DNA of 26,285 nucleotides from a virus (taxonomy: Duplodnaviria > Caudoviricetes), in the IMG/VR virus record IMGVR_UViG_3300006922_000151, positions 1-26,285 of that record; one strand, written 5' to 3'. The position numbers were made by a program, and so were the translations under genes. Below are positions 1 through 26,285 of the stretch, one piece after another; the stretch's first letter is position 1; the number at the start of each line of letters is the position of its first letter. The notes beneath the pieces are model-generated. The model made no database searches, was not told the DNA's origin, and was given only the letters and a program-made list of their open reading frames with translations.

Positions 1-16
1 ATTCAATTTATCCATA

Positions 17-304
17 ATGCATTTATACTATCCATTCCCTGATGAAGCAGCTGCTATTACAGCAAGTGAAGATATCTATGACTTAAATGCTCCTCCAAGA
101 AGTGAGCGTGTAACCTTATATGCTTTTGATTGGTTCCCTAACTCAGGTAACCCAACATATGTTCTTGCTTGGCAAGATGAGCCACAAACATTTAACACAG
201 GGGACATACTAGATGGAATTACAGCACTTACAGAAGAAGAAGCTATTGATGCTGGTTATCTATTAGGTGATGATCATAGTGGGATGCGTAATGCAGGAGG
301 TTAA
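17..304 (+). CDS. hypothetical acidic protein (95 aa)
   Basis: Clean ORF with protein-like composition, same orientation as the downstream cluster; no motif recognised. Confidence 0.7.
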   Translation: MHLYYPFPDEAAAITASEDIYDLNAPPRSERVTLYAFDWFPNSGNPTYVLAWQDEPQTFNTGDILDGITALTEEEAIDAGYLLGDDHSGMRNAGG

Positions 305-355
305 TTACTAGTTGATTTCATAAAAATTTAGTATATTATATGTATAAGATATATT

Positions 356-556
356 ATGCCAGCTAAAAAGACAACAAAGAGAAAGACTAAGTCTAAAGTA
401 AATGAGGCGGGTAATTATACTAAGCCTACAATGCGTAAGAACTTATTTAATAGAATCAAAGCAGGAAGTAAAGGTGGTAAACCTGGACAGTGGTCTGCTA
501 GAAAAGCTCAGATGTTAGCCAAGCAATATAAGGCTAAAGGTGGTGGTTATAAATAA
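356..556 (+). CDS. small Lys-rich basic protein, resembling the N-terminal half of DUF5872-type proteins
   Basis: NYTKP..R...KGGKPGQWSARKAQMLAKQYKAKGGGY matches my recollection of the DUF5872 N-terminal motif; very basic. Confidence 0.75.
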   Translation: MPAKKTTKRKTKSKVNEAGNYTKPTMRKNLFNRIKAGSKGGKPGQWSARKAQMLAKQYKAKGGGYK

Positions 557-561
557 TAGTT

Positions 562-834
562 ATGCCTTTAAAGAAGTCACAAAAGAGTCTTAAGAAATGG
601 GGAGACCAAAAGTGGATGACCTCTGGTACTCATGCCAATAAGAAAAAAGGCAAGAAGAAAGAAGTTAAATCTAAGGGTAAGAAAAGGTATTTACCTAAAG
701 CTGCTTGGGATGCTCTATCTCCATCGGAGAAAAGATCAACTAACCGAGCTAAAGCTAAGGGTAATAAGAAAGGTAAACAGTTTGTATCTCAACCAAAGAA
801 GGTTAAGAAAAAGACTGCAAAGTATAGAAAATAA
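562..834 (+). CDS. small Lys-rich basic protein, resembling the C-terminal half of DUF5872-type proteins
   Basis: SQKSLKKWGDQKW...RYLPKAAWDALS..EK......K..GKQFV resembles the DUF5872 C-terminal part (from recall); starts 5 nt after the previous stop. Confidence 0.75.
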   Translation: MPLKKSQKSLKKWGDQKWMTSGTHANKKKGKKKEVKSKGKKRYLPKAAWDALSPSEKRSTNRAKAKGNKKGKQFVSQPKKVKKKTAKYRK

Positions 835-846
835 AATTTAGAAATT

Positions 847-1080
847 ATGCCAGCTAAAAAAATAACTGCAGCTAAAAAGAAAGGTACAATGCCAAAGAGT
901 GTTGTTAATTATAAGAAAGGTGGATCAACAAGTACAAAGTCTATTAAAGCACCTGCAGGTTTTCATTGGATGAAAAGCGGATCAGGTTTTAAACTAATGA
1001 AACACTCAGGTAAATTTGTACCTCATAAAGGTGCATCTTTAACAGCTAAATTTCCTATTCAAAAGGTACATAAAAAGTAA
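847..1080 (+). CDS. small Lys-rich basic hypothetical protein
   Basis: 77 aa, starts MPAKK, contains no Asp/Glu; TAATG overlap with the next ORF. Confidence 0.75.
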   Translation: MPAKKITAAKKKGTMPKSVVNYKKGGSTSTKSIKAPAGFHWMKSGSGFKLMKHSGKFVPHKGASLTAKFPIQKVHKK

Positions 1081-1370
1081 TGCCTACTAAAAAAGATTCA
1101 AGATTAGCAAAAGCTGGTGTATCAGGTTACAATAAACCCAAGCGTACACCTAGCCATCCTACTAAGTCACATGTAGTTGTAGCTAAGGACGGTGATAAGA
1201 TTAAGACTATACGTTTTGGTCAGCAAGGTGCTAAGACTGCGGGCAAACCTAAAGCAGGTGAATCATCCAGAATGAAAAAGAAACGTTCTAGTTTTAAAGC
1301 TAGGCATGCTAAGAATATCAAGAAAGGTAAGATGTCTGCAGCATACTGGGCTGATAAAGTTAAGTGGTAA
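1080..1370 (+). CDS. small basic viral protein (RFG...RH...AAYW motif; possibly DUF5754-like)
   Basis: KSHVVVAK..KTIRFGQQG...SFKARH...SAAYWADKVKW pattern of small basic viral proteins; family name from memory, unverified. Confidence 0.75.
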   Translation: MPTKKDSRLAKAGVSGYNKPKRTPSHPTKSHVVVAKDGDKIKTIRFGQQGAKTAGKPKAGESSRMKKKRSSFKARHAKNIKKGKMSAAYWADKVKW

Positions 1371-1400
1371 AAAGAAGGGGCTAGTTAAAGCCCCTTTCTT
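1371..1400. terminator. bidirectional intrinsic terminator between convergent gene blocks
   Basis: Stem AAGGGGCT (1375-1382)/AGCCCCTT (1389-1396), 6-nt loop, A-rich left flank and T-rich right flank, located at the +/- junction. Confidence 0.8.
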
Positions 1401-1411
1401 ATTTGGTTTTA

Positions 1412-1492
1412 TCAATTACCACAGTCTTCAGACTTTAACACAAGCCTGACTACAAGTATAGCAGCTAATATAATTAATATCCCTTTAAACAT
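1412..1492 (-). CDS. small hydrophobic peptide (26 aa, MFKGILIILAAILVVRLVLKSEDCGN)
   Basis: Read manually (absent from the ORF track); ATG 2 nt after the upstream TGA; single TM-like segment; fills the gap before the terminator. Confidence 0.5.
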   Translation of the reverse strand: MFKGILIILAAILVVRLVLKSEDCGN

Positions 1493-1494
1493 TA

Positions 1495-2316
1495 TCAAAA
1501 GTCAAAAGAAATTGTTAACTGATTATCCTCCTCCATCTCAAGATCTACAATATCTAATAAAGCATCACTTTTCTTTATGCCCATTTGACCAAGTACATCA
1601 TTAACCATAAACTTATGGAACTTCTGGCTATCACTTAACCAACTACGTGGATGAGTTTTCTTTAGGGCATGTGTAACATGATTATAGAAAGCCCAAGCAT
1701 TATCTTGATCAGCTTGATAATCATAAGAAGGTTTCTTTATCTCCTGCTTAACTATACTTATCTGATTAAGATCTAATATATCTTTATCACAATATAAGCG
1801 TCCAACCAACTCAGACTGTTCTTTAATAGATAGATCAGTTTTTCTAAAAGAATCACGATCAGCTATGATCTGACCAAAGTGCTTATCTACACTACCCAGC
1901 TGTTTATTTATCTGCTCAGTAATATCATAGTCAGCAGATCCTGTATGCTTACGGGCAAAACTCATTTCACCTGCTACCATTCCATTGTTACATACCATAA
2001 CATATGCGCCAACTGCACACTGAAATCTAACAGACTTATCATAAGAGTTTGTCCAGCCAAACATCATCCCTAACTCCTTATCAGTAGTTCCGTCATTTGA
2101 TAAAGGAGATATGTGATAGACACCTTGTGCAACCTTTGCGTCAACGTTTGCTCTATAGAGCTCCCTATCAACTTTTAAACCCAAGTCATTAAATAACTTT
2201 TGGGTTGTATTTATAATGTCACTATGTGACACAACTGTATATGAGCCACCATGATTAGGTAATGGTGCGCTCTCTAAATACGTTCTTGTTGTTTCTTGTG
2301 GTCTTTTATAACCCAT
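1495..2316 (-). CDS. DUF932/DUF3871-like phage protein
   Basis: Y.VVSH..II, G..NSYD.S..F..AVGAYV.VC.NGM and RKHTG motifs typical of DUF932-like proteins. Confidence 0.7.
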   Translation of the reverse strand: MGYKRPQETTRTYLESAPLPNHGGSYTVVSHSDIINTTQKLFNDLGLKVDRELYRANVDAKVAQGVYHISPLSNDGTTDKELGMMFGWTNSYDKSVRFQCAVGAYVMVCNNGMVAGEMSFARKHTGSADYDITEQINKQLGSVDKHFGQIIADRDSFRKTDLSIKEQSELVGRLYCDKDILDLNQISIVKQEIKKPSYDYQADQDNAWAFYNHVTHALKKTHPRSWLSDSQKFHKFMVNDVLGQMGIKKSDALLDIVDLEMEEDNQLTISFDF

Positions 2317-2356
2317 AATAAAATTTTAATAAATATAGTAATAGTTACTGAGTCAG

Positions 2357-3190
2357 TTAAAATATATATCTAATTGTTTCCACAGGGAAATATTTTGTGT
2401 ATATATCTTTGAACTCATTTAGTAATCTAGACTTATGCTGAAGAGGATATCTCATTATCCCTTTGGAGTTTTTAACTTCGCGGGAATACTTCATTATCTC
2501 TCTAGCCTTATCTGTAGTTTTAACCATTTGATTTTTATGATTAGTTAAAGCAATAACCTCGCATTTATTAACACCAACCTGTTCTTTAACCTGCGCAAAC
2601 AAATTATCATACTCTTCTTTCCATCCTGGATAAAAGATTAATGGACTATAATTTATATGCACCTCCCAACCTAGAGTCTTCAGTCTATTTATATCAGGGA
2701 TTCTTTTATGAATCTTCTGCATGCCTGGCTCAAGTATATTAGAATACTCTTGTGGCATTAGACTAACACGCACTCTTGGTGGCTTGTTAAAATGATTTAC
2801 ATCTAGTTTAAGCTGACCTGGGAACTTAGTTGCCATTGTAGCTTTTAACTGTGGGTGATCATCATAACGTTTTATATAATCTATCAAAGGCTCAGGCATA
2901 TACTTCTGCATCCTGACAAGATCTGTGTTACATGCAATGTCTACCATTGTATAAACTGGGTCTTGTTGATCAGGGACTTTAGTAAAAGACTTTTCCCATT
3001 CAACTACAGAATTAAATATATCATCAACGTTCTTGTTGACAAACACTCTAGTGCCATTGTACCTAGACATATAACAATAAGTGTTAACGCACCCTCCAAA
3101 GCAACCATAGATTACATTTGGAGCGATGCAGTTAGCACTATTGTTATTGTCCTTGGTAACTAATGTTTTAGTTTCCTGGACCTTAACCAT
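2357..3190 (-). CDS. splB: spore photoproduct lyase-like radical SAM protein
   Basis: SANCIAPNVIYGCFGGCVNTYCY cluster motif ending in YCY; DIACNTD aligns with the SPL H-donor Cys segment; ATK, RVRVSLMP and VHINYSPLI also SPL-like. Confidence 0.8.
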   Translation of the reverse strand: MVKVQETKTLVTKDNNNSANCIAPNVIYGCFGGCVNTYCYMSRYNGTRVFVNKNVDDIFNSVVEWEKSFTKVPDQQDPVYTMVDIACNTDLVRMQKYMPEPLIDYIKRYDDHPQLKATMATKFPGQLKLDVNHFNKPPRVRVSLMPQEYSNILEPGMQKIHKRIPDINRLKTLGWEVHINYSPLIFYPGWKEEYDNLFAQVKEQVGVNKCEVIALTNHKNQMVKTTDKAREIMKYSREVKNSKGIMRYPLQHKSRLLNEFKDIYTKYFPVETIRYIF

Positions 3191-5187
3191 TAAAATAATT
3201 TTAATTGATTGATTGGCTTAGCAAGAATATTATTTATCTCTTGCTCTATAGCATTAATATAGTAAGCTTCATCAACATCATACTGCTCCCACCTGGGTTT
3301 GATATCAATCTTATTAAAGATGGTTTGCATCCACCTACCGGCTTCAAGCTGAACCTCACGATTATCCTTTTGATTAACCTTGACTATCTTGATGCCACTC
3401 TTAGAGATATAATATCTATTGATCTTCTGCAGTTTGTCTTCTTTATAAAGACCCTTCTCCAAAGACCGAGCCATCTGCATCCAATCACCCTTAGACTTAC
3501 CACCTATACAATAGTCTAAAATATTTCTATTGTTCTTAAGGAAGTCTCTGGGTAATATATTATGCACAAAGTAATGATATATAGCCTTCTTAATAATAAG
3601 CTTAGACTTATTCTTATGGAGCTGTAAATTATGAAAGTCAAATCTACCTTTCATCTTAGCAGGTGCATGCAAGAACTTACCATCCTTTATCTTAAATAGA
3701 TAGTGTGGGTTTTTCTTCTTAATATCCCGCCATGTAGTCATATCAGTTTCTTTATATCCAAGGACACCGATATAATTATTTACATCACCTATTATAAGCT
3801 TCTCATATTGATCATGTTCAAGGTTAAGATTAGTAATCTCTTCCCACTCTTTGCAGATATCCATGTACTCATCAATATACTTACGAGGGATAATAGTCTC
3901 TATACCATCTGTATTCTGCATAAGCGCAGTAGAATTTGGTATACGTTCCATTATCATTTCATAGAGCATCATTAGAGTAAGCTGACCATTAATTGTGATT
4001 TTCATACACAGCTCAGGGTCATAGAAAAAACTATTCTTATCATTACTAAGCCCGAAGGTTGAGTTAAGAATAATCTTATAGACATAGTTCATAGGATTAC
4101 TCTTAGGTATCTTCTTTCTTTCTTTGAAGAACCACTCATACTGATCACAGAATTCATCCTCTGGAAAATGACCTGGAGAAAATCTATTCTTGATGGCTAA
4201 GTTAGGATAGAAGCTTGTAACATCTGAAGACATAATAACATACTCATCATCACTCTCAAATATTCCACTTCTTCTAGCACCATGCACACCACCTAAACCA
4301 AAGTGAGTGACTACATCTTTGTACTCCATTTTATACTTAAGCCCACCCCTAAGATTGTCAGTCATTATCTCAGCAGCCTTAAACCTTTCATGAAGTAACT
4401 TAAATTCAGGTACATTAAACTTAACATATGGAAGTATAATATCTTTGAACTTAACCACTCTTCTAAAGGTCCTAAGCTTTTTAATTTGAGACTTACTCTT
4501 GCCAAGTTTATCTGAAAGATAATAAGCAAATAACTCCTTGCTTATCCTGGGCTCTGAGGCACTAAACAAATTAATACCATAGGTTTTAGTTAGCTCCTTT
4601 CTTAGTGCTATCTGTGACTTTGATCTATTAAATATTTCCTTAGTTGACCTAACATCATTTATACAGTACGTTGTTATCATCTCAATCTGCTCTGGAGTTT
4701 CAATCTGTGTAGAGTGATGGAGAGGCATATCAATCATGTCATCCCAATCCATACTATACTGAATCCACTTTAGACTAGATCTCTTGGCCGGGTTATCCCA
4801 ATGATGCATTTTAAATATATCAATCTGCCCAATCTTAATTTTCCAATGAGGATAATCCAAGAACTGACCCGCATTACTTTTCTGTATGCAAGAGGTAGCA
4901 TACTGATATATCATGCTTGCTATTTGATCTGCATCTTCTATATCCCAAGAAGAACAGTTATCAAGAATATACTGAGTAACCTGAGCATCAAACGCTAAAC
5001 CATTATAGGATATGTGCCATTCCTTATTCTTAATGTTATCACCAAGAAATAATAGGAATGCCTTGAAGTCATTCTGAGATTTATGTACGGTAAATACTTT
5101 TCTCTCAGATGTTTTATAGTGCTCAAACACTGCTATGAAGCAATTGTTGAGCGTCTCATAATCCATTATCCAATGATTCATACGCAT
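3190..5187 (-). CDS. family B DNA polymerase with 3'-5' exonuclease domain
   Basis: Exo motifs DYET, YNGLAFD, YCINDV; polymerase motifs DVTSFYPN (A), KIILNSTFG (B), NTDGI (C). Confidence 0.93.
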   Translation of the reverse strand: MRMNHWIMDYETLNNCFIAVFEHYKTSERKVFTVHKSQNDFKAFLLFLGDNIKNKEWHISYNGLAFDAQVTQYILDNCSSWDIEDADQIASMIYQYATSCIQKSNAGQFLDYPHWKIKIGQIDIFKMHHWDNPAKRSSLKWIQYSMDWDDMIDMPLHHSTQIETPEQIEMITTYCINDVRSTKEIFNRSKSQIALRKELTKTYGINLFSASEPRISKELFAYYLSDKLGKSKSQIKKLRTFRRVVKFKDIILPYVKFNVPEFKLLHERFKAAEIMTDNLRGGLKYKMEYKDVVTHFGLGGVHGARRSGIFESDDEYVIMSSDVTSFYPNLAIKNRFSPGHFPEDEFCDQYEWFFKERKKIPKSNPMNYVYKIILNSTFGLSNDKNSFFYDPELCMKITINGQLTLMMLYEMIMERIPNSTALMQNTDGIETIIPRKYIDEYMDICKEWEEITNLNLEHDQYEKLIIGDVNNYIGVLGYKETDMTTWRDIKKKNPHYLFKIKDGKFLHAPAKMKGRFDFHNLQLHKNKSKLIIKKAIYHYFVHNILPRDFLKNNRNILDYCIGGKSKGDWMQMARSLEKGLYKEDKLQKINRYYISKSGIKIVKVNQKDNREVQLEAGRWMQTIFNKIDIKPRWEQYDVDEAYYINAIEQEINNILAKPINQLKLF

Positions 5188-5193
5188 ATATTT

Positions 5194-5223
5194 AAAAAAA
5201 AAGAGGAGCTAATGCCCCTCTTT
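5194..5223 (-). terminator. intrinsic terminator upstream of the polymerase gene
   Basis: Minus strand GAGGGGC-ATTA-GCTCCTC (one G.U pair) followed by a run of about 9 T. Confidence 0.75.
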
Positions 5224-5245
5224 CTAAACTCATTATATATACATA

Positions 5246-5674
5246 TTAGCCCATAGTAATTATAGGACTCTTTTCGGTAGCTTCTACATCTACCATGTAC
5301 TGTGAGAAGTCAAAGGACTCAGCATTCACAGCAAATATATTGATAAAATCACTTATCTCTTGCTTGTCAGTAAGATAAAACTCAGAGAAAGTATCAACAA
5401 GTCTTCTTTCCTCACGGACAGTCTTGCCTCCTTCTCTTGGTGTACCCTTTACTCTTAATGGATCACCATTGTCATCAAGCTTTGGGATCATGTGATAAGA
5501 TTGCTTCATTACCTTGCTAATAACAGCAAGAATTCCTGAAGAAGGATCATACATAGCTTCAACATACGGAGACTCCGGAGTAGCTGGAACTAAATTAAAA
5601 GATTTTGCTCCTCTAAATGATGAGGAAACTATTAACATATTTTTACCAATTGTCATACTAAATAATTTGTACAC
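5246..5674 (-). CDS. hypothetical protein (start may be the ATG at 5656)
   Basis: Full ORF in operon orientation; the track start is GTG, and the ATG at 5656 has an A/T-rich leader. Confidence 0.75.
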   Translation of the reverse strand: MYKLFSMTIGKNMLIVSSSFRGAKSFNLVPATPESPYVEAMYDPSSGILAVISKVMKQSYHMIPKLDDNGDPLRVKGTPREGGKTVREERRLVDTFSEFYLTDKQEISDFINIFAVNAESFDFSQYMVDVEATEKSPIITMG

Positions 5675-5686
5675 GTAAATATAATA

Positions 5687-6241
5687 CTATTTGACTAAAT
5701 TTAAAGGGAAGGGAATATTTTCTTCACAACATTCCAAACTCATATCAGGTGGTGTACACACCTCATGCGCCTTTTTAATTACATCAATATCAACATCAAG
5801 ATACTCTGCATATTTATCATGGACCTCTTCTGGAAAAAGAAATCCTAATACACACTGAGCTATCTGACCATCATCACCAAAAAAATTAAGAATAATTTCC
5901 ATGGTGTCATCACTAAGTTTAGAGTACTTACCCTGCAAAAACAAATCTATATCATTCTTATAAGAGGATAGATCAAAAGCATACAACATATGCTCCTTAT
6001 CAATCTCATGAAAGTCATGATAATGCTTGTTAGAGAATATAACCCTCTCCTCAAACTTTCTGAACTCCGGTGAGTCCTCTACTATATAAGAACAGATTAA
6101 CTTATAGTCTCCTGTATTATATAAAGTATCCCAACACATATAAGTATTCTCAGGAACAAAGTCTATACCTTTCTTTATTCCCAGTAAAGGATAGATAAAT
6201 ACTTTGCTCTTCTGAAAATACTTTGTGTATACCCCACGCAT
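5687..6241 (-). CDS. hypothetical phage protein
   Basis: 184 aa ORF coupled to the nuclease gene by TAATG overlap; no motif recognised. Confidence 0.75.
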   Translation of the reverse strand: MRGVYTKYFQKSKVFIYPLLGIKKGIDFVPENTYMCWDTLYNTGDYKLICSYIVEDSPEFRKFEERVIFSNKHYHDFHEIDKEHMLYAFDLSSYKNDIDLFLQGKYSKLSDDTMEIILNFFGDDGQIAQCVLGFLFPEEVHDKYAEYLDVDIDVIKKAHEVCTPPDMSLECCEENIPFPLNLVK

Positions 6242-7227
6242 TATAATACTACTTTATCTTCCAGAAACTGATATGGGAGTGAATAGTTTTTGTTAGAGTA
6301 ATGATATTGTGCAATGTTGAGAGTTTCAAATAGGCTTTCCATCCAGTTTGTTATAGTCTTATCAGATACATCAAATACATATACTTGATCATACTTATCA
6401 ATAACTACAAACTTAAAAGTAATTTTATAACTGTCACGGTCTTCAGACAGGTTTTCATAAACAAGTTTACAATACATTGCTGCTTGTAACCAATAATTAT
6501 AGAAGTCTACAGTCTCAGCAAAGTCAGCAATTGTTTTACCCGTGGTCTTGAGATCACAGATAGTAACTTGTTTAGCTTCCTCATCTATAGAGTAATAATC
6601 TACAAAACCTTTAAGTCCAAAGTTTCTATCATGTAACCCGCATTCAAGATATGCTTCTGCATGTGTAGTAATAGAGTCTAACTCAAAGTCTGTTTCTTCT
6701 TTAGTAAATAAAGACATCACATCTTTGTTAGACTTAATCAACTCAACTCTATCCTTACATCTCTGTAGGGTATCCATATCAACAACATCTGCCTTAGTGT
6801 TCTTAATGAACTGCCAATAAGCTTCATTGTCTTCTGTCTGGATCTTAGCCAGCCTTTTCTCATCTTCTTTAAAAGATTGATAAAGGTTTGCAATCTTAAG
6901 TGCATCTAGAATATAAACATTGCTATTTACATTTAGCAGGTCACCTCTTATTTTGTCTTTTAAATAGTACAAAACCTTCTTAATGCTATCTGTAGGTGTC
7001 TTGCCCGGCATAACGCTGAACTTTTCCTCTAAATTTTGTGGTTCAAATAAGAGACAGTGTATAAGCTTACCCTCTACAAGGTGCTTATCTAATCTCTCTT
7101 CTCTGTCCTTTAGTATATAGTCTTTATAAAAAAGACTTGGGGAGAATAATAATTTGTTTAACGATGAGTAACTAAACTTAAACGGTTTAGAATAGAACTC
7201 TTTTTCTTTCTGATTATTTCTTTGCAT
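6241..7227 (-). CDS. PD-(D/E)XK exonuclease (RecE/PDDEXK_1-like)
   Basis: SYSSL, G.LIH, LKGFVD, ICDLKTT and YWLQAAMY motifs. Confidence 0.85.
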   Translation of the reverse strand: MQRNNQKEKEFYSKPFKFSYSSLNKLLFSPSLFYKDYILKDREERLDKHLVEGKLIHCLLFEPQNLEEKFSVMPGKTPTDSIKKVLYYLKDKIRGDLLNVNSNVYILDALKIANLYQSFKEDEKRLAKIQTEDNEAYWQFIKNTKADVVDMDTLQRCKDRVELIKSNKDVMSLFTKEETDFELDSITTHAEAYLECGLHDRNFGLKGFVDYYSIDEEAKQVTICDLKTTGKTIADFAETVDFYNYWLQAAMYCKLVYENLSEDRDSYKITFKFVVIDKYDQVYVFDVSDKTITNWMESLFETLNIAQYHYSNKNYSLPYQFLEDKVVL

Positions 7228-7243
7228 AATAAAAGTTTAAGAT

Positions 7244-7267
7244 GGGGTGCAGCTTTCGCCACACCCC
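7244..7267 (-). terminator. GC-rich hairpin with GAAA tetraloop (weak terminator or processing/stability element)
   Basis: Minus strand GGGGTGTGGC-GAAA-GCTGCACCCC, 10-bp stem with G.U pairs; U-tract is poor. Confidence 0.55.
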
Positions 7268-7283
7268 TACCAATCATAGCATC

Positions 7284-8399
7284 TTAAAATGGAAATTGCA
7301 TTCTTGCATCAAGCATGGCATTACCATACTCAACCATTTCCTTCTCTGTGAACTCCTTTGCATACTTAGGAGCTAACATTAAATCACTTTCCTTAATATG
7401 AAACGGCATTGTATACTTGCCTGTATCTGGATCATCATCAAAGAATCTATTGAGAAATCTTTGGAAGATTAAGTGTCTAACTTTCCTAACAGCAAAGCTA
7501 GTCATTGCACCCTTAGATAATAAGACATCAAAGAATTTATTATAACCATGTGCATAATCATCCAGTTGCATATTAAATGCAGAGAAAGTAGATCTCATTG
7601 CTTTAACACCAACAGAGTTCCAAGCTTTACACCTACACAAAGCACTATGATTTGTCACAAGTAATAAAGCAATCTTATCTATAGACTCAGTATAATTACT
7701 ATTAGCCATAACATTCAATGCCATACTAACATCATCCTCATTTCTTGTACGAATCATCTCCTCTAGATTATCAAACATCTCTTCTGTAATAGTAGGAGAC
7801 TCCCTACTAATTATATTATTAATGTTTTCATCTAGTACAAGATTACCACAGCTAAGTAATGTATATGCATTTTTATTCATGAATGATGAATGGTACCTTT
7901 GTTCTAACATAGGAGTAACTGTTATCTCATAATTTCTATGCCAACCATAACCCTTATACTCAAACAATACAAGCTCATGATCATTTATAGCAGCTCTTAC
8001 ATCAGATAAATCTATAGTCTGCTTATGCATATCAGCTAGCACACTTTCAACCGTATAGACTCTAGGACGATAACCAAGCTGATTTACCTTAGAGTTAATA
8101 TACTTCTGAGACACAACAAGATAGTCAGCTTTATGGTAATCTCTTGTAACAGAGATTCCATAATCTTGTTTAATGCTACTTATTTTATCTCTTGATAGAT
8201 TAATCTTTGGATATCTATATAAGGTTTTACCCTTTAGAGAATTACTATCTAGTTTATTAAAGATTATACCCGTTTCACGGCTAAAACTTTCCATAGAGTT
8301 TCTATCCATATTATAATCAAAAATATAACCATCTGTAATAGATACAACATGACCACCATCTTTCTGACTATCAATCAGTACTTTTAACGCTTTCTTCAT
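7284..8399 (-). CDS. BRCT-like domain protein, paralog of 8371-9456
   Basis: LKGKTLYRYPKINLSRDKI..IKQDYGISVTRDYHKADYLVVS fits the BRCT b1-a1-b2-b3 pattern; shares an ED.V.MA..I/M.N..Y block with the neighbouring ORF. Confidence 0.6.
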   Translation of the reverse strand: MKKALKVLIDSQKDGGHVVSITDGYIFDYNMDRNSMESFSRETGIIFNKLDSNSLKGKTLYRYPKINLSRDKISSIKQDYGISVTRDYHKADYLVVSQKYINSKVNQLGYRPRVYTVESVLADMHKQTIDLSDVRAAINDHELVLFEYKGYGWHRNYEITVTPMLEQRYHSSFMNKNAYTLLSCGNLVLDENINNIISRESPTITEEMFDNLEEMIRTRNEDDVSMALNVMANSNYTESIDKIALLLVTNHSALCRCKAWNSVGVKAMRSTFSAFNMQLDDYAHGYNKFFDVLLSKGAMTSFAVRKVRHLIFQRFLNRFFDDDPDTGKYTMPFHIKESDLMLAPKYAKEFTEKEMVEYGNAMLDARMQFPF

Positions 8400-9456
8400 T
8401 TTTCATATATTTTAAAAACTCTGGTTTAATCTCAACCTTAAACTTGTATATAGGATGTTCTTTAGGTGGAATACCACTGTAGTCACCAGATGATTGAACC
8501 AAGATTCCCTTTCTATAAATAGGTTCTAGATAAGTAAATGATGCATGATCAAGCTTATCTTTTTTCTGTAGATACTCAATCATTTCAAATGAATTCATTC
8601 GTGAGAGCCTAAGAAAATTACTATTATTAATCCATGTCTTTACATCTTTGCTCCTATTGTATCTATAGATTCTACCACTAATTTTATCAGCTAGCTTCCA
8701 TAGATAATGAATGTTAGTTTCATAATCAATGTTAGGTAAGATTGTTCCTGCCATAGCAACATCCTCATCACTCCCCCATACCTGTGAAGATATAGTTTCT
8801 ACTAGCTCCTCATCAAGAGTTAGCTTAGTTACTGGGTTATTAATAATATCCTCAGCATTAACTACACCAAGCCCATTATTAATTGCATCAATAATCTTAA
8901 GACCACCACTGGTGATATACTTCTCATAAATACTATCTGCATTATGAGCATTGTTTGCATATGCGCTAGGTCTATAACCTAGATTTGGATGAAACAAGAC
9001 TGGTTTATCATGATCATTTACCATATCAACAAAGCTATCATCACCCATACGAGAAATACCATAGCCTACATGATATCCTTTTAAATAACCCATAATATTT
9101 CTATTAGAGAATGGTGTCCATCTATCTGTGGTAATATCGAGAGTCTTACCAACTACAACTGCATCAGCTCTTTTAAGACTACCTGTTATTTTAATATCAA
9201 GAGCATCAAGTATACCACGCATTCTATCATTAGTGTACTCTATGCCTGGTACAATATAAACCTTCTTACCTTTTAAAGCAGAAGGATCAGTATCAGATTT
9301 AAAAGTCTCTACAAAATCATAATACTGCGATGTCTTAATAAGATATATGCTATTATTAAAATTCTCCTCAGAGTAAGGCACGGTTATTTCCCGTACCTCA
9401 CTCCCAAGAAGATTTGTAACAATAGTATTATCAATTTCTTGAAATACTTTACTCAT
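8371..9456 (-). CDS. BRCT-like domain protein, paralog of 7284-8399
   Basis: LKGKKVYIVPGIEYTNDRMRGILDALDIKITGSLKRADAVVVG fits the BRCT pattern; TAATG-coupled to the MoxR gene. Confidence 0.6.
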   Translation of the reverse strand: MSKVFQEIDNTIVTNLLGSEVREITVPYSEENFNNSIYLIKTSQYYDFVETFKSDTDPSALKGKKVYIVPGIEYTNDRMRGILDALDIKITGSLKRADAVVVGKTLDITTDRWTPFSNRNIMGYLKGYHVGYGISRMGDDSFVDMVNDHDKPVLFHPNLGYRPSAYANNAHNADSIYEKYITSGGLKIIDAINNGLGVVNAEDIINNPVTKLTLDEELVETISSQVWGSDEDVAMAGTILPNIDYETNIHYLWKLADKISGRIYRYNRSKDVKTWINNSNFLRLSRMNSFEMIEYLQKKDKLDHASFTYLEPIYRKGILVQSSGDYSGIPPKEHPIYKFKVEIKPEFLKYMKNEESVKSTD

Positions 9457-20904: not shown

Positions 20905-21280
20905 ATTTCTTTTTAATTGTTTCTGCTATAGGAGTGGGATCACCTTGCTCATCTACCCTTACAAACTTAATCTTTGTAGATAGAATAACCTTTTGATTAC
21001 CACTATATACATTATGTGATCTTGCTTCTAAGTAAAGAGTAATAGATGTGTTACCAATCTTTGCTACCTTACCATATATCTTAATTAGTTGACCTTCTTT
21101 AGCAGGACGTATAAATACACATTCATCTATCTTTATAGTCAGCATTCTAGGTGTACTACAACATTCAGTAGCAAAAGCTGCTCCTGCGGCATCCATCCAC
21201 GCAAGCAACTTGCCACCAAATAAATTTGCATGAAACCCTAGATCTGATTTTTTAATCGGATGGGTTGTAATTAAATTCAT
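20867..21280 (-). CDS. acyl-CoA thioesterase (HotDog fold, YciA-like)
   Basis: DLGFHANLFGGKLLAWMD, F..PAK.G, GNTSI and FV.VDE.G.P motifs. Confidence 0.85.
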   Translation of the reverse strand: MNLITTHPIKKSDLGFHANLFGGKLLAWMDAAGAAFATECCSTPRMLTIKIDECVFIRPAKEGQLIKIYGKVAKIGNTSITLYLEARSHNVYSGNQKVILSTKIKFVRVDEQGDPTPIAETIKKKYGTENIQSQEDN

Positions 21281-21966
21281 TAGTATATTACTTCATAATA
21301 GCTATGCTTCTTTCTTATAACAAAGTCAGAAGTATCTGACATAGCATCAAAAAAATCATCTGGATCCATAGACTCACCTAAGAATCTTACCTCAAAGTGT
21401 AAGTGAGGACCAGTAGATCTACCGGTTGAACCAATGATACCTAAGGGTGTACCTGCTGCTATAGTATCCCCTTCTTCTACAAGAAGATTCCAGTGATGAG
21501 CATAGTAAGTCTCTAACCCATTAAAGTGTCTAACAATAACTAGCTTACCATAGCCACCGTTGTAACCTGCTTTAGCATACCTTACTACACCAGCAAAGGT
21601 TGAATAGCTTGTATCCTTATTGTTATAAGCAATGTCTATACCTTCATGCATTCTACCCCAACGCCATCCATATCCGCTAGTACTTCTACCAACCATAACA
21701 GGAGGGTGATATTCACCCCCTATTATAAGTGCACTATCAATAGTTGTATCAGCATTATAGTGCAGGTACCTGGTATCTTTAGTATACATTGTATCTATAA
21801 AAGGTACCTCAATAGTATCTCTTACAGTATCAATCTGAATGATAGGTACTTCTATAATTACCGGTTGTTTTGTTGCTAAGTTATAGCTAGTAATCATGGC
21901 ATTAATTAATACCAATACCATTGTTGCACCTAACATAGTTACAAATACTTTTTCCAAAACCTTCAT
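21280..21966 (-). CDS. M23 family peptidoglycan endopeptidase with N-terminal membrane anchor
   Basis: HEGID, GYGKLVIVRH, YAH and GSTGRSTGPHLHFE motifs; hydrophobic N-terminus. Confidence 0.9.
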   Translation of the reverse strand: MKVLEKVFVTMLGATMVLVLINAMITSYNLATKQPVIIEVPIIQIDTVRDTIEVPFIDTMYTKDTRYLHYNADTTIDSALIIGGEYHPPVMVGRSTSGYGWRWGRMHEGIDIAYNNKDTSYSTFAGVVRYAKAGYNGGYGKLVIVRHFNGLETYYAHHWNLLVEEGDTIAAGTPLGIIGSTGRSTGPHLHFEVRFLGESMDPDDFFDAMSDTSDFVIRKKHSYYEVIY

Positions 21967-23742: not shown

Positions 23743-24164
23743 TTAAGTTGTAGAAAGTTGTGTGGTAATAAACCTGCATGCATAAAGTGCACAATCAAAT
23801 GATCATAGTTTATTCCAAGTTGCTTTAGTGTGAAACGATTAATATATTTTGGATCAACCTCATCTGTGATCATATTCTTAGCCAGTTGGCTATTATTAAA
23901 TATACTAAAAATAGAGTTAGTAAACTCATTAGAGACCTTTTGTTTTAAGGTATTAACCTCACTTTGTCCCCGTCTCCACACCTTTTTGATTCTGTTACGT
24001 TTTGATGGACTCATGGCCCTTACTTCTTCTTCTGCGTATACATTTAAACCATGTAATACACGCTTAAACAAGAAGTGTTGCTTTGGGTTCAGCTTTGTAT
24101 AAGTAAACCTTTGGTCAGCATATAGCTGGTAATCTGATAGTATTCCTTTGTAGTAAGTTCTCAT
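23739..24164 (-). CDS. hypothetical protein (141 aa)
   Basis: Clean ORF in operon orientation. Confidence 0.72.
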   Translation of the reverse strand: MRTYYKGILSDYQLYADQRFTYTKLNPKQHFLFKRVLHGLNVYAEEEVRAMSPSKRNRIKKVWRRGQSEVNTLKQKVSNEFTNSIFSIFNNSQLAKNMITDEVDPKYINRFTLKQLGINYDHLIVHFMHAGLLPHNFLQLK

Positions 24165-24185
24165 GGGTATAAATTAAAAGTATAT

Positions 24186-24213
24186 AAAAAAAGGGGCTAC
24201 CGTAGCAGCCCCT
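24186..24213 (-). terminator. intrinsic terminator with C(UACG)G tetraloop
   Basis: Minus strand GGGGCTGC-TACG-GTAGCCCC followed by T7. Confidence 0.88.
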
Positions 24214-24225
24214 AAACGAAACAAA

Positions 24226-24759
24226 TTAAAGTTCAAAGGTAGTTTCTGATTCAATCTCCTCAGTTACTTCCTCCTCCGTGACTTGTTCTTCTGCCTCTAG
24301 TTCCTCAACAGGTTCAGCAATAGCTTGCTCTGTTGTTATACCATTGGCTTCACGGATTGCATCACCATTAGTGTGTGCTATTAACACATCACTTTCTTCT
24401 GTATTAGTTGTAAAGAAAGTCTTTCTATAGATAGGCTCTCCATATGCACAACAAATAACTCCTGTGCCACCTGCATACTTGAGGTCACGATCAGGGTTGT
24501 TAGGATTAAAAGGTTCAGTTTGTTCTTTAATAACAATCTTACCTGCAATCTCCTGGTTTGCCTGGAAGTTCAAAGACTCTAAGTCTTCCACTCTACCATG
24601 CAATAATGTAGAAACGTTTGTGGACTTTACCCATCCACCGTTTGTAAATTGGACACGTTGTTGTTGTAAACGAATAAAACCATACTCTGGATTTGCTTGT
24701 GATACACGCATAACGCAACCCATGTCATCTGCCAAAACAGTTACTCTGTTTGAACTCAT
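24226..24759 (-). CDS. hypothetical protein with acidic C-terminal tail
   Basis: 177 aa, beta-rich core, Glu-rich tail ending TTFEL; followed by a terminator. Confidence 0.78.
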   Translation of the reverse strand: MSSNRVTVLADDMGCVMRVSQANPEYGFIRLQQQRVQFTNGGWVKSTNVSTLLHGRVEDLESLNFQANQEIAGKIVIKEQTEPFNPNNPDRDLKYAGGTGVICCAYGEPIYRKTFFTTNTEESDVLIAHTNGDAIREANGITTEQAIAEPVEELEAEEQVTEEEVTEEIESETTFEL

Positions 24760-24788
24760 AATAATAAATTAAAAATGTAAAAAAAAGA

Positions 24789-25046
24789 TTAGATATCATC
24801 CCGCTGAAAGTCTTTATCTTTCAGCTTGGTACGACTATCTATCTCAGTGACATCAGGCTCATACTCTTCTTCATCCTGTACAACAGGAGTTGATTTCTCT
24901 GCAAAGGGAGAGTAAAAGGGATTTATGTATTCCTTTGTAAAAGTACCGCTAAGGCCATTGAGATCTCTTAGATCTTGTTCATCAAAATCTAAGTACTGCT
25001 CAAGTGAGCATTCTATGAAACGACCATTGGGTAATTGTATTATCAC
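24789..25046 (-). CDS. hypothetical acidic protein (85 aa, GTG start)
   Basis: ORF in operon orientation. Confidence 0.65.
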   Translation of the reverse strand: MIIQLPNGRFIECSLEQYLDFDEQDLRDLNGLSGTFTKEYINPFYSPFAEKSTPVVQDEEEYEPDVTEIDSRTKLKDKDFQRDDI

Positions 25047-25141
25047 ATAATAAAAATAGATAATACCATACCACTTATGTCGTAATTGTGCAACTAATAT
25101 TTAATTAGTTACTATATATAGTGTAGTAATATAGCTACAGT

Positions 25142-25381
25142 TTAAACTAAAGTAATTACTCTACCAGTTCTTATAATATACTTTTTGTCTTTAAGCTCTC
25201 TTATCAACCTATCTACCTGGCGCTGACTAATGTTATTTAGATCTGCTAGTGTAGATATTGAGGGATAGCATTCCCGTTTATTGTTTGCATATAAAGACAA
25301 TGTACTATACAAACCTTTGGCTTGTATTGAAAGTTCTGGATCTGAGATCACATCATAGTTTACTATACCAAAGCGTTTCAC
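25142..25381 (-). CDS. winged helix-turn-helix protein (HTH_36-like)
   Basis: D.ELS..AKGLY..L..YA.....CYPSISTLA..NISQRQV.R.I.ELK.K.YI. Confidence 0.78.
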   Translation of the reverse strand: MKRFGIVNYDVISDPELSIQAKGLYSTLSLYANNKRECYPSISTLADLNNISQRQVDRLIRELKDKKYIIRTGRVITLV

Positions 25382-25584
25382 TCAACATGATTATTAAAAA
25401 TAATAATGAGTGCATCTGCTAATGGTGTTCCATCAGTAAGCTTAGGATCTTGAAAGTTATATTTCATATTCATAAACTTACCAAACTCTGCAGGGTATAA
25501 ACCTTCCTGCTTGGCTTGATCATAATCTTTTTTCCAAGTGTTAAGCTCAGATCTAAGAAGTTCTTGGGATATTCTAGCTGCCAT
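25378..25584 (-). CDS. hypothetical protein (68 aa)
   Basis: 4-nt overlap with the HTH gene. Confidence 0.65.
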   Translation of the reverse strand: MAARISQELLRSELNTWKKDYDQAKQEGLYPAEFGKFMNMKYNFQDPKLTDGTPLADALIIIFNNHVE

Positions 25585-25586
25585 AG

Positions 25587-25673
25587 TTAAAGGGTTATCA
25601 TTGTTAAGATTCCTAATCCAGTTACTGCAATGATTGCAATAACCATTAATGCTTCAAATGTTCTATAGCTCAT
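25587..25673 (-). CDS. small membrane peptide (28 aa, MSYRTFEALMVIAIIAVTGLGILTMITL)
   Basis: Read manually; ATGA overlap with the upstream ORF; stop 2 nt before the next ATG; one TM segment. Confidence 0.55.
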   Translation of the reverse strand: MSYRTFEALMVIAIIAVTGLGILTMITL

Positions 25674-25792
25674 CGTACTGCTGGGTTATTCTTACAACTC
25701 CTATAAGCACTGCAAGATGTAGATGTCATACCTACAAATAGAACAAGGGCAATCAGATACAAAAACATACGGTGTTTAATTAAATACTTCAT
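25670..25792 (-). CDS. small lipoprotein-like peptide (40 aa, MKYLIKHRMFLYLIALVLFVGMTSTSCSAYRSCKNNPAVR)
   Basis: Read manually; basic n-region, hydrophobic h-region, TS-C lipobox-like site. Confidence 0.55.
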   Translation of the reverse strand: MKYLIKHRMFLYLIALVLFVGMTSTSCSAYRSCKNNPAVR

Positions 25793-25810
25793 GGAAAATA
25801 AATTAGGGTT

Positions 25811-26005
25811 AAAAAAAATAAGCAGTTTATATACATACTCAGGTATTCCTATACGAGTTTTTACGTTTGTTTTATATTATATACACCACCTACAACACAG
25901 GTGTACACCAGATCTTCATATGATCTGTCAGTACCGGTTATCCAATACCTATTACAAACAACGTATAGATATCTACTAAAGCTGGTTGTAACAACTTATG
26001 TAGAT
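25811..26005 (-). ncRNA. putative structured RNA domain ending in an H-type pseudoknot and U8
   Basis: Several short helices (25971-26005, 25909-25927, 25887-25903, 25849-55/25962-68); their single mismatches are G.U only on the minus strand; pseudoknot at 25819-25846. Confidence 0.4.
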
Positions 26006-26012
26006 GCAAGAA

Positions 26013-26196
26013 AGACTACAGTACCCTGAACCAAAAACACTTAAATAAAAAAGGTACTGCAGTCTATAAGGAACTGTAACATTGCACAACATGAACGACC
26101 AAGAAAAGAATTAATGCAATGCTACAGTTATATTAAACTATGACACCCGAGTTAAACAATGTTACATTCACGTATACAAAGCCGGGTGCCATAGTT
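26013..26196 (-). ncRNA. array of three tandem long-stem/large-loop hairpins (putative sRNA array)
   Basis: Stems 26013-25/26053-65 (13 bp), 26072-86/26115-29 (15 bp), 26136-49/26183-96 (14 bp); loops 27/28/33 nt; both linkers 6 nt; each stem has one A-C mismatch on + that is G.U on -. Confidence 0.7.
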
Positions 26197-26201
26197 ATTA
26201 G

Positions 26202-26285
26202 TTAAGAAGATATAGGAAACTTCTCTCTAAGTTCTTTAAGGTATTTAAGAGTTAAATCCATCTCATCTAATTCACGCATTGCCTC
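26202..26285 (-). CDS. 3' end of a CDS truncated by the window edge (...EAMRELDEMDLTLKYLKELREKFPISS)
   Basis: Open frame from the window end to TAA at 26202-26204. Confidence 0.55.
   Translation of the reverse strand, partial: EAMRELDEMDLTLKYLKELREKFPISS

Follow-up and report, generated by a model that had tools for sequence, protein, structure and literature searches.

What three consecutive hairpins are doing in a non-coding gap of an uncultured marine phage, and which messages their loops might act upon, is the question raised by positions 26013 to 26196 of the window, which is the whole 26,285-base virus record analysed here. The first-pass annotation had read these loops as the reverse complement of Bacteroidota-type translation initiation regions, and had proposed that they pair across start codons of the host or of other phages, silencing several messages at once. 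We re-examined the locus in its genomic setting, through its variants in related phages, and by searching for sequences with which each loop could pair.

On its minus strand the window carries a replication module that includes a polymerase, a primase, helicases, an ATPase and a DUF2201 protein; the array sits amid small variable ORFs near the start of this module. Terminase, portal and capsid genes, whose relatives are distant and crAss-like, come from a near-identical overlapping record, which brings the total to 58,226 bases, about half of the phage when compared to the complete genomes of its relatives (113-118 kb). PHROG matches were obtained for the large terminase, portal and major head proteins. 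With about half of the genome covered, the capsid is closest to those of Lbo-JY46, phi4:1/phi17:2 and cr106_1 (24-28%), and phi14:2 is among the closest relatives of the polymerase. The host is probably a member of the Bacteroidota, because the start regions are A-rich (A at -3, -12 and -13) and because TAnnTTTG boxes are present. Both traits agree with the available part of a study of this phylum, in which translation starts without Shine-Dalgarno pairing and upstream adenines, including A-12 and A-13, are needed (PMC6847099). The A-rich, Bacteroidota-type start regions with A at -3 that the first-pass annotation had invoked were indeed seen among the starts of the phage group.

A conserved structure on the minus strand

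The loop sequences and coordinates that had been quoted for the array were correct, and its parts and immediate surroundings are as follows.

26136..26196, minus strand: hairpin 3, the 5'-most and an optional module, with a 15-bp stem (2 G.U pairs) and a 31-nt loop
26151..26181, minus strand: loop 3, antisense to 5666-5695, with invariant ends and a variable middle of 8-9 nt
26072..26129, minus strand: hairpin 2, with a 16-bp stem and a U-rich loop of 26-28 nt; no target found
26087-26114: loop 2, which reads M-N-D-Q-E-K-N-stop on the plus strand
26013..26065, minus strand: hairpin 1, with a 13-15-bp stem and a U/G-rich loop of 23-27 nt; no target established
26026-26052: loop 1
25811..26004, minus strand: conserved 3' domain, made of a short hairpin, a multibranch domain, a final small hairpin and a U-run
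26202..26285, minus strand: a 71-aa ORF (its 3' end); which gene precedes the array varies among strains (5 contexts)
25670..25792, minus strand: small ORF after the element, 40 aa in L001

Alignment of eight variants revealed a conserved minus-strand structure of ~385 nt, running from 26196 to about 25811, whose 5' half is formed by the three hairpins. Pairing was kept in 99.5% of 655 stem cells, and 8 of the 93 pairs carried changes on both sides, six of these eight falling in the 3' domain; none of 500 shuffles scored as high and slid controls were 26-43% paired, in a comparison that ignores relatedness and draws on eight close variants. The same kinds of stem change were seen in Logan contigs. 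In hairpin 1, five one-sided changes and one two-sided change left the stem 100% paired, and one stem pair of hairpin 3 was found as CG, UA and UG among the variants. One-sided changes yield G.U pairs when read on the minus strand, an outcome that settles the strand as minus and is suggestive of an RNA; the A.C mismatches of the plus-strand stems are G.U pairs on the minus strand. The minus strand folds with a z score of -5.99, equalled by none of 200 shuffles, and the plus strand more weakly (-3.98).

Pattern scans found the array in three IMG/VR and ten metagenome contigs, all from one narrow crAss-like clade; the metagenome search pattern demanded the hairpin-2 stem, so that hairpin 2 is present in those contigs by construction. 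Hairpin 3 is present in nine of the 13 and absent from the other four, and the loop types differ by substitutions as well as indels; the two-hairpin form also occurs on a 103-kb contig (the record of L211). Five distinct upstream contexts border one identical 5' array edge. Within the DNA examined around each of 80 homologous loci, the array was found at two, in the near-identical phage and in L014. When 79 loci were scanned with a model of the 3' domain (R1), L014 alone gave a full match and L068 and L070 matched in the terminal motif; the genomes of 11 more distant relatives gave no convincing full match. A generic screen of hairpin loops against their own genomes in seven relatives was too noisy for any signal, and cultured phages shared only short chance matches with the array region. 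A single RNA-derived contig was recovered, 199 nt long and from an oligo-dT library (one RNA run among 24 runs); it spans 25727-25921, outside the hairpins.

Several smaller features of the element were also observed. A motif of ~25 nt (25821-25846, minus strand) forms the small hairpin ahead of the U-run and recurs in distant relatives, at ~6593 in L068 and L070 and twice in G007 (112236 and 112477); it may be a terminator, a processing site or a promoter. In distant relatives, hairpin-rich non-coding stretches of other sequence and with small loops lie upstream of this motif (G007:112500-113000, minus strand; L068:6170-6600). Within the 3' domain, a 12-nt U/G-rich loop (25884-25895, minus strand) is invariant in all seven variants that cover it, and its best match in 58 kb, of 12 nt, lies on a non-coding strand. 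Positions 26157-26167 of loop 3 form a 9-10-nt complement of the 3' arm of hairpin 2 (26075-26084), kept through G.U pairs in the variants, a likeness in which a duplication origin or an alternative fold might possibly be read. A peptidase-like gene, putatively M23, lies directly before the array in the two-hairpin strains (L014:8232-8932) and a similar one 4 kb downstream of the array in the window (21280-21966). Gene direction flips at L001:4380-4700; the sequence there is GC-rich and repeat-like, contains C, G and TG runs, and is a candidate genome end or origin region.

Loop 3 and the leader of the 136-aa gene

No target had been reported within the window by the first-pass annotation. This turned out to be wrong, as loop 3 is complementary to 5666-5695, a site 20 kb from the array in the replication module. 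The features concerned are listed below.

5666..5695, minus strand: predicted loop-3 target, comprising the end of the 184-aa gene (final codons and TAG), a TATATTTA box (5683-5676) and leader
5246..5656, minus strand: 136-aa gene, the predicted regulated gene, conserved and directly upstream of the DNA polymerase gene (3190-5187)
5687..6241, minus strand: 184-aa gene, whose stop codon falls within the loop-3 target

Against the minus strand at 5695-5666, loop 3 forms a 30-nt duplex with 23 Watson-Crick pairs, five G.U pairs and two mismatches, its two invariant ends pairing in a single register with that one strand. Relative to the ATG at 5656 the site covers -39 to -10, so that the duplex ends 10 nt before the AUG; this ATG was taken as the start because the closest homologues, of 879 found, are 136 aa long. 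The CAU of loop 3 faces a GUA near the upstream stop codon and not a start codon, and the start reading M-L-H-S-R-I-Q that had been proposed for this loop is therefore unused by the match.

The strength of the match was assessed in several ways. In an ungapped, G.U-aware scan of both strands of the 58,226 bases, the target scored 47 and the next best site 30. Dinucleotide shuffles of loop 3 never reached 47 (0 of 500 and 0 of 3000, with a maximum of 44), and the site was still the best match in 6.1 Mb of the phage and its relatives, where 20 shuffles peaked at 40. Among 2970 natural 31-mers six reached 47, none of these at a start region; start regions make up about 3% of the loop-3 search space. 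One of about 340 sliding 30-mers of phi14:2 reached 46, and therefore scores this high do arise by chance. The duplex energy of -26.5 kcal/mol ranks first of 3447 start regions, and opening costs of 5.4 + 4.9 kcal/mol leave a net of about -16 kcal/mol, with topology ignored. The two other loop-3 types place the same site 7th and 4th of 3447, ranks that are not independent because they follow from homology; with the leader of the window, the L210 and L212 types of loop 3 reach -19.9 and -22.4 kcal/mol; genome-wide, these variant types do no better than shuffles.

Loop and target differ at seven positions. All seven are transitions and five are compatible with G.U pairing, a count that neutral change could equally well give (p about 0.23); such a set of differences would also fit the drift of an old captured copy. 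A read-through origin of loop 3 was considered and was not supported. In the cluster of the 184-aa protein, the 14 full-length members end in PLNLVK and the 15th listed member is a 107-aa fragment; a scan of the genome collection with this protein yielded zero confirmed matches.

The 136-aa protein has no Pfam or PHROG family, and its model (pLDDT 82) gave no Foldseek match at E<=0.001; the best VIA Z was 4.5, and the ATP11 label carried by 22% of its nearest Atlas cluster is a lead only. The centre of the target reads TAnnTTTG in 34 of 36 non-identical relatives; in the other two, as in the window, it reads TAnnTTTA. The distance from the -7 box to the transcription start is given as 4-5 nt in the accessible portion of PMC6847099. 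A transcript from the putative -7 box of the 136-aa gene would, speculatively, begin at about 5671 and include no more than 5-6 of the 30 target bases, in which case full pairing would require a read-through mRNA.

Loops as possible antisense to start codons

Seen on the plus strand, loops 2 and 3 each contain an ATG, and the A at -3 that had been noted for both was confirmed. When each loop was base-shuffled 20,000 times, A..ATG arose in 17.9% of cases for loop 3, 13.2% for loop 2 and 6.0% for loop 1, and its presence in two of three loops has a chance probability of about 4%. Scored with a matrix derived from 630 start regions in the phage group, for which real starts average 2.5 +/- 2.9 over -8..+12, the two loop contexts reached -0.35 and -1.6 (shuffle p 0.16 and 0.22). 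The resemblance to translation starts thus stands as far as the ATG with its A at -3 is concerned, but it is barely above chance and its contexts score below the mean start.

These loops could nevertheless pair across start codons of the host or of foreign phages, as multiplexed silencers, the match of loop 3 to its own phage being secondary (for instance through homology with a competitor's leader). Such a scheme would account for the CAU, with U opposite -3, that is kept in all three loop-2 types and all three loop-3 types despite indels; of the four loop-1 types, two have CAU and the others UAU, which is able to wobble-pair with AUG. Against it, the contexts of the loop ATGs are not start-like, and the matches of the host searches described below are scattered, unrelated and at about control level. 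We consider it unlikely.

Within the 58 kb of the phage, 168 of 500 shuffles matched or beat loop 1 and 455 of 500 did so for loop 2, and in 6.1 Mb of phage and relatives, plus three more relatives, neither loop rose above shuffles. On the host side, the genomes sampled (125 and 121) came from two small groups of Bacteroidota centred on one genome and may not include the host. A loop-2 pattern gave 76 scattered genome matches, seven of them Bacteroidota by title and one of these seven at a likely start. In one Bacteroidota family it was found in 11 of 125 genomes, with 12 matches (one preselected) in unrelated genes, compared to eight for controls; in viral records it gave three matches, none informative. 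A loop-1 pattern was found in 0 of 121 Bacteroidota genomes. A pattern derived from loop 1 matched 51 times in three Bacteroidota genomes, as opposed to 28 with the reversed control, which favours start-codon pairing at first sight; an excess of this kind is expected because the pattern contains ATG.

One observation in favour of foreign targets comes from another, small phage family, where loop 1 of the window forms an unbroken 24-bp duplex (-25.5 kcal/mol) across the AUG of a 213-aa gene of the head region, and other loop-1 types reach -21.4 to -23.0 kcal/mol at the same start. This match came from a loop-built pattern run without a matched control over all of IMG/VR; four of 19 matches fell there, the distinct events numbered about 10, and the pairing may be due to chance. 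Loops 2 and 3 gave nothing above shuffles in the contigs of these phages. The 213-aa gene precedes a capsid-like gene (L410, L418, L423 and L428; match at 1501-1520), and the capsid-like protein of this family is nearest to that of Nonlabens phage P12024.

Two further candidate targets were set aside. When all three loops were compared with 32 leaders of the 136-aa gene family, the family means were near background except for loop 3; one loop-1 type placed the G007 leader 4th of 3447, a rank that several tries could yield by chance. The scores of loop 1 at the 3' end of a conserved 192-aa gene (43-44 in L039, L062 and L050) were within those of shuffles (mean 41, maximum 45). The stretches resembling loop 1 lie at L039:16319, L062:7916 (just before a helicase start) and L050:10700, and the 192-aa protein ends differently in close relatives.

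The check for enrichment at start codons had a split outcome: loop 3 beats shuffles at a leader of the phage itself, and loops 1 and 2 do not beat them in the phage and relatives searched. Of the multiplexed silencing that had been proposed, what holds is a structured minus-strand element with U-rich loops, one of them antisense to an initiation region. Pairing across host or foreign start codons has so far not been borne out, as the sole significant target is the phage's own gene and its start codon is not faced.

Proposed mechanism, known systems and other readings

The reading that we favour, and to which we give about an even chance, is that the hairpin row is a phage-made RNA in which loop 3 damps translation of the 136-aa gene and loops 1 and 2 act likewise elsewhere. 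The element would be transcribed together with the early genes and the RNA then released or stabilised. In phi14:2, as far as the seen part of the preprint describes it, the virion polymerase makes the early transcripts, and the early intergenic RNAs are abundant and stable, with their function undetermined (bioRxiv 10.1101/2020.03.07.982082). The long stems of the array would protect its U-rich loops, and in the cell loop 3 would pair with read-through mRNA of the 136-aa gene, covering the A-rich upstream region. Translation of this gene would be damped by the pairing, and loops 1 and 2 would act in the same way on other, predicted targets. On a more speculative note, loop 3 could silence read-through messages while sparing promoter-driven ones.

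A broader version, in which each hairpin displays one guide of ~25-30 nt against a start region (in the phage's own genes, in co-infecting phages or in the host) and needs no protein, is tentative and in our view rather improbable. If true, the locus would be a guide array whose units are gained, lost and retuned between strains, a multiplexed silencing cassette at the RNA level with no described phage counterpart; in the accessible literature on crAss-like phages, searched by titles and the beginnings of abstracts, no antisense RNA or such array was described. The narrower prediction concerns one RNA and one named leader and could be tested with a reporter, with no need for phage culture. Because the 30-nt duplex lies over -39 to -10, it would also show cheaply and directly if a gene can be silenced by blocking nothing but its upstream leader. 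Stackable hairpin guides might in turn provide a knock-down tool for Flavobacteria and their phages.

The closest functional parallel is the c4 RNA of phages P1 and P7, which uses its loops to pair with a phage mRNA at the ribosome-binding region (PMC12197685, seen in part). As with c4, the RNA would be phage-encoded, with imperfect loop pairing to the initiation region of a phage mRNA, the duplex of the array being a predicted one that falls 10 nt short of the AUG. Unlike c4 as presented there, the array has three long independent hairpins with loops of 23-31 nt, one of them optional between strains, and its target lies 20 kb off in a crAss-like replication module rather than in an antirepressor message. 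Membership of the c4 family was rejected, as an Rfam scan of 24000-26285 down to E 5 returned three weak, unrelated matches far under the gathering score.

Stem-loop TIGR arrays, in the part of their description that was available (bioRxiv 10.64898/2026.09.09.750476), likewise consist of short tandem hairpins with non-identical stems and variable loops of about 30 nt, and occur in phages. The array was rejected as one of these: under a perfect-motif rule (box C/D intervals within 15 nt inside each stem), no box C - 9 nt - box D pair was found on either strand of five variants, and only two lone intervals were seen. The Nop domain PF01798 was found in none of five records, three of them fragments of this phage; coverage of the phage is about half, and Tas may escape the Pfam model. 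Moreover, a TIGR guide has two 9-nt spacers matching opposite DNA strands, whereas loop 3 pairs contiguously, to one strand and with G.U pairs. The early intergenic RNAs of phi14:2 resemble the array in that they too are long and non-coding and occupy the beginning of an early module in a crAss-like phage, with no detectable homology between the two (R1 best E 1.0 over bases 1-9000; blastn short matches only).

A CRISPR array was rejected too, as the three stems differ and the 20 largest repeat families include none formed by them. Integron attC sites have RYYYAAC and GTTRRRY cores at their ends, together with extrahelical bases. Here a single RYYYAAC was found, inside loop 3, GTTRRRY was absent from that strand in five variants, and the stems are unbulged. 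The best reading of these comparisons is that the array would work like c4 of P1 yet belong to none of c4, TIGR, CRISPR and attC.

One possible alternative to guide loops is a structured RNA with another job, such as a processing or stabilising signal, attenuation or a protein sponge, the loop-3 match being a relic or due to chance. The long regular stems and the conserved multibranch 3' domain, with its terminal hairpin and U-run, are consistent with it, as are the two loops for which no targets were found, the loop/target differences that are all transitions, and the abundance of early intergenic RNAs reported for phi14:2 in the preprint (bioRxiv 10.1101/2020.03.07.982082), as far as it was seen. 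It leaves unexplained that loop 3 matches a start region on its sense strand, which none of the 2970 natural 31-mers combined with so high a score, and that the changes of loop 3 cluster in mid-loop while both pairing ends are invariant. We regard this as fairly improbable.

It is much less likely still that the loops guide a phage protein on DNA, with loop 3 switching transcription of the 136-aa gene by pairing, in its opened promoter, with the non-template strand. The target is centred where most relatives (34 of 36) carry TAnnTTTG, and a nuclease-dead TIGR-Tas with stem-loop guides represses transcription according to the part of bioRxiv 10.64898/2026.09.09.750476 that was available. The absence of box C/D pairs on either strand of the five variants and of a Nop domain in the five records speaks against such a guide, as does the fact that the variable part of loop 3 overlies the -7 box; the array is also without a large conserved protein gene at its flanks.

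The remaining reading concerns the plus strand and one further feature.

25862..25869, plus strand: TAnnTTTG, a perfect Bacteroidota -7 box that faces the hairpins and could drive an opposite-strand transcript

That the plus strand is the functional one, its loops being micro-peptide starts or its transcript an antisense RNA against the early mRNA, seems highly implausible even though this box points into the hairpins and the strand does fold (z -3.98): stem variants that pair as G.U on the minus strand would turn into A.C mismatches on the plus strand, the reading frames after the ATGs are not conserved among variants, and of the seven variants covering the box five keep it, the two without it being L210 and L217.

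The favoured reading of the array as a translational damper draws on the early RNAs of phi14:2 for its comparison, and in that genome an RNA gene was also observed. A tmRNA gene lies just before g006 of Cellulophaga phage phi14:2 (KC821624.1; L448:4031-4502), apparently within one of the two early intergenic RNAs as these appear in the seen part of bioRxiv 10.1101/2020.03.07.982082. No RNA gene is among the features shown for either record. ARAGORN gives its tag as GSSVQKLAMVA, and the Rfam model RF00023 scores 46 bits, compared to a gathering score of 47 (E 4.5e-16). A tRNA-Arg(TCT) gene was also seen at L221:1679-1753 (near-identical record G002).
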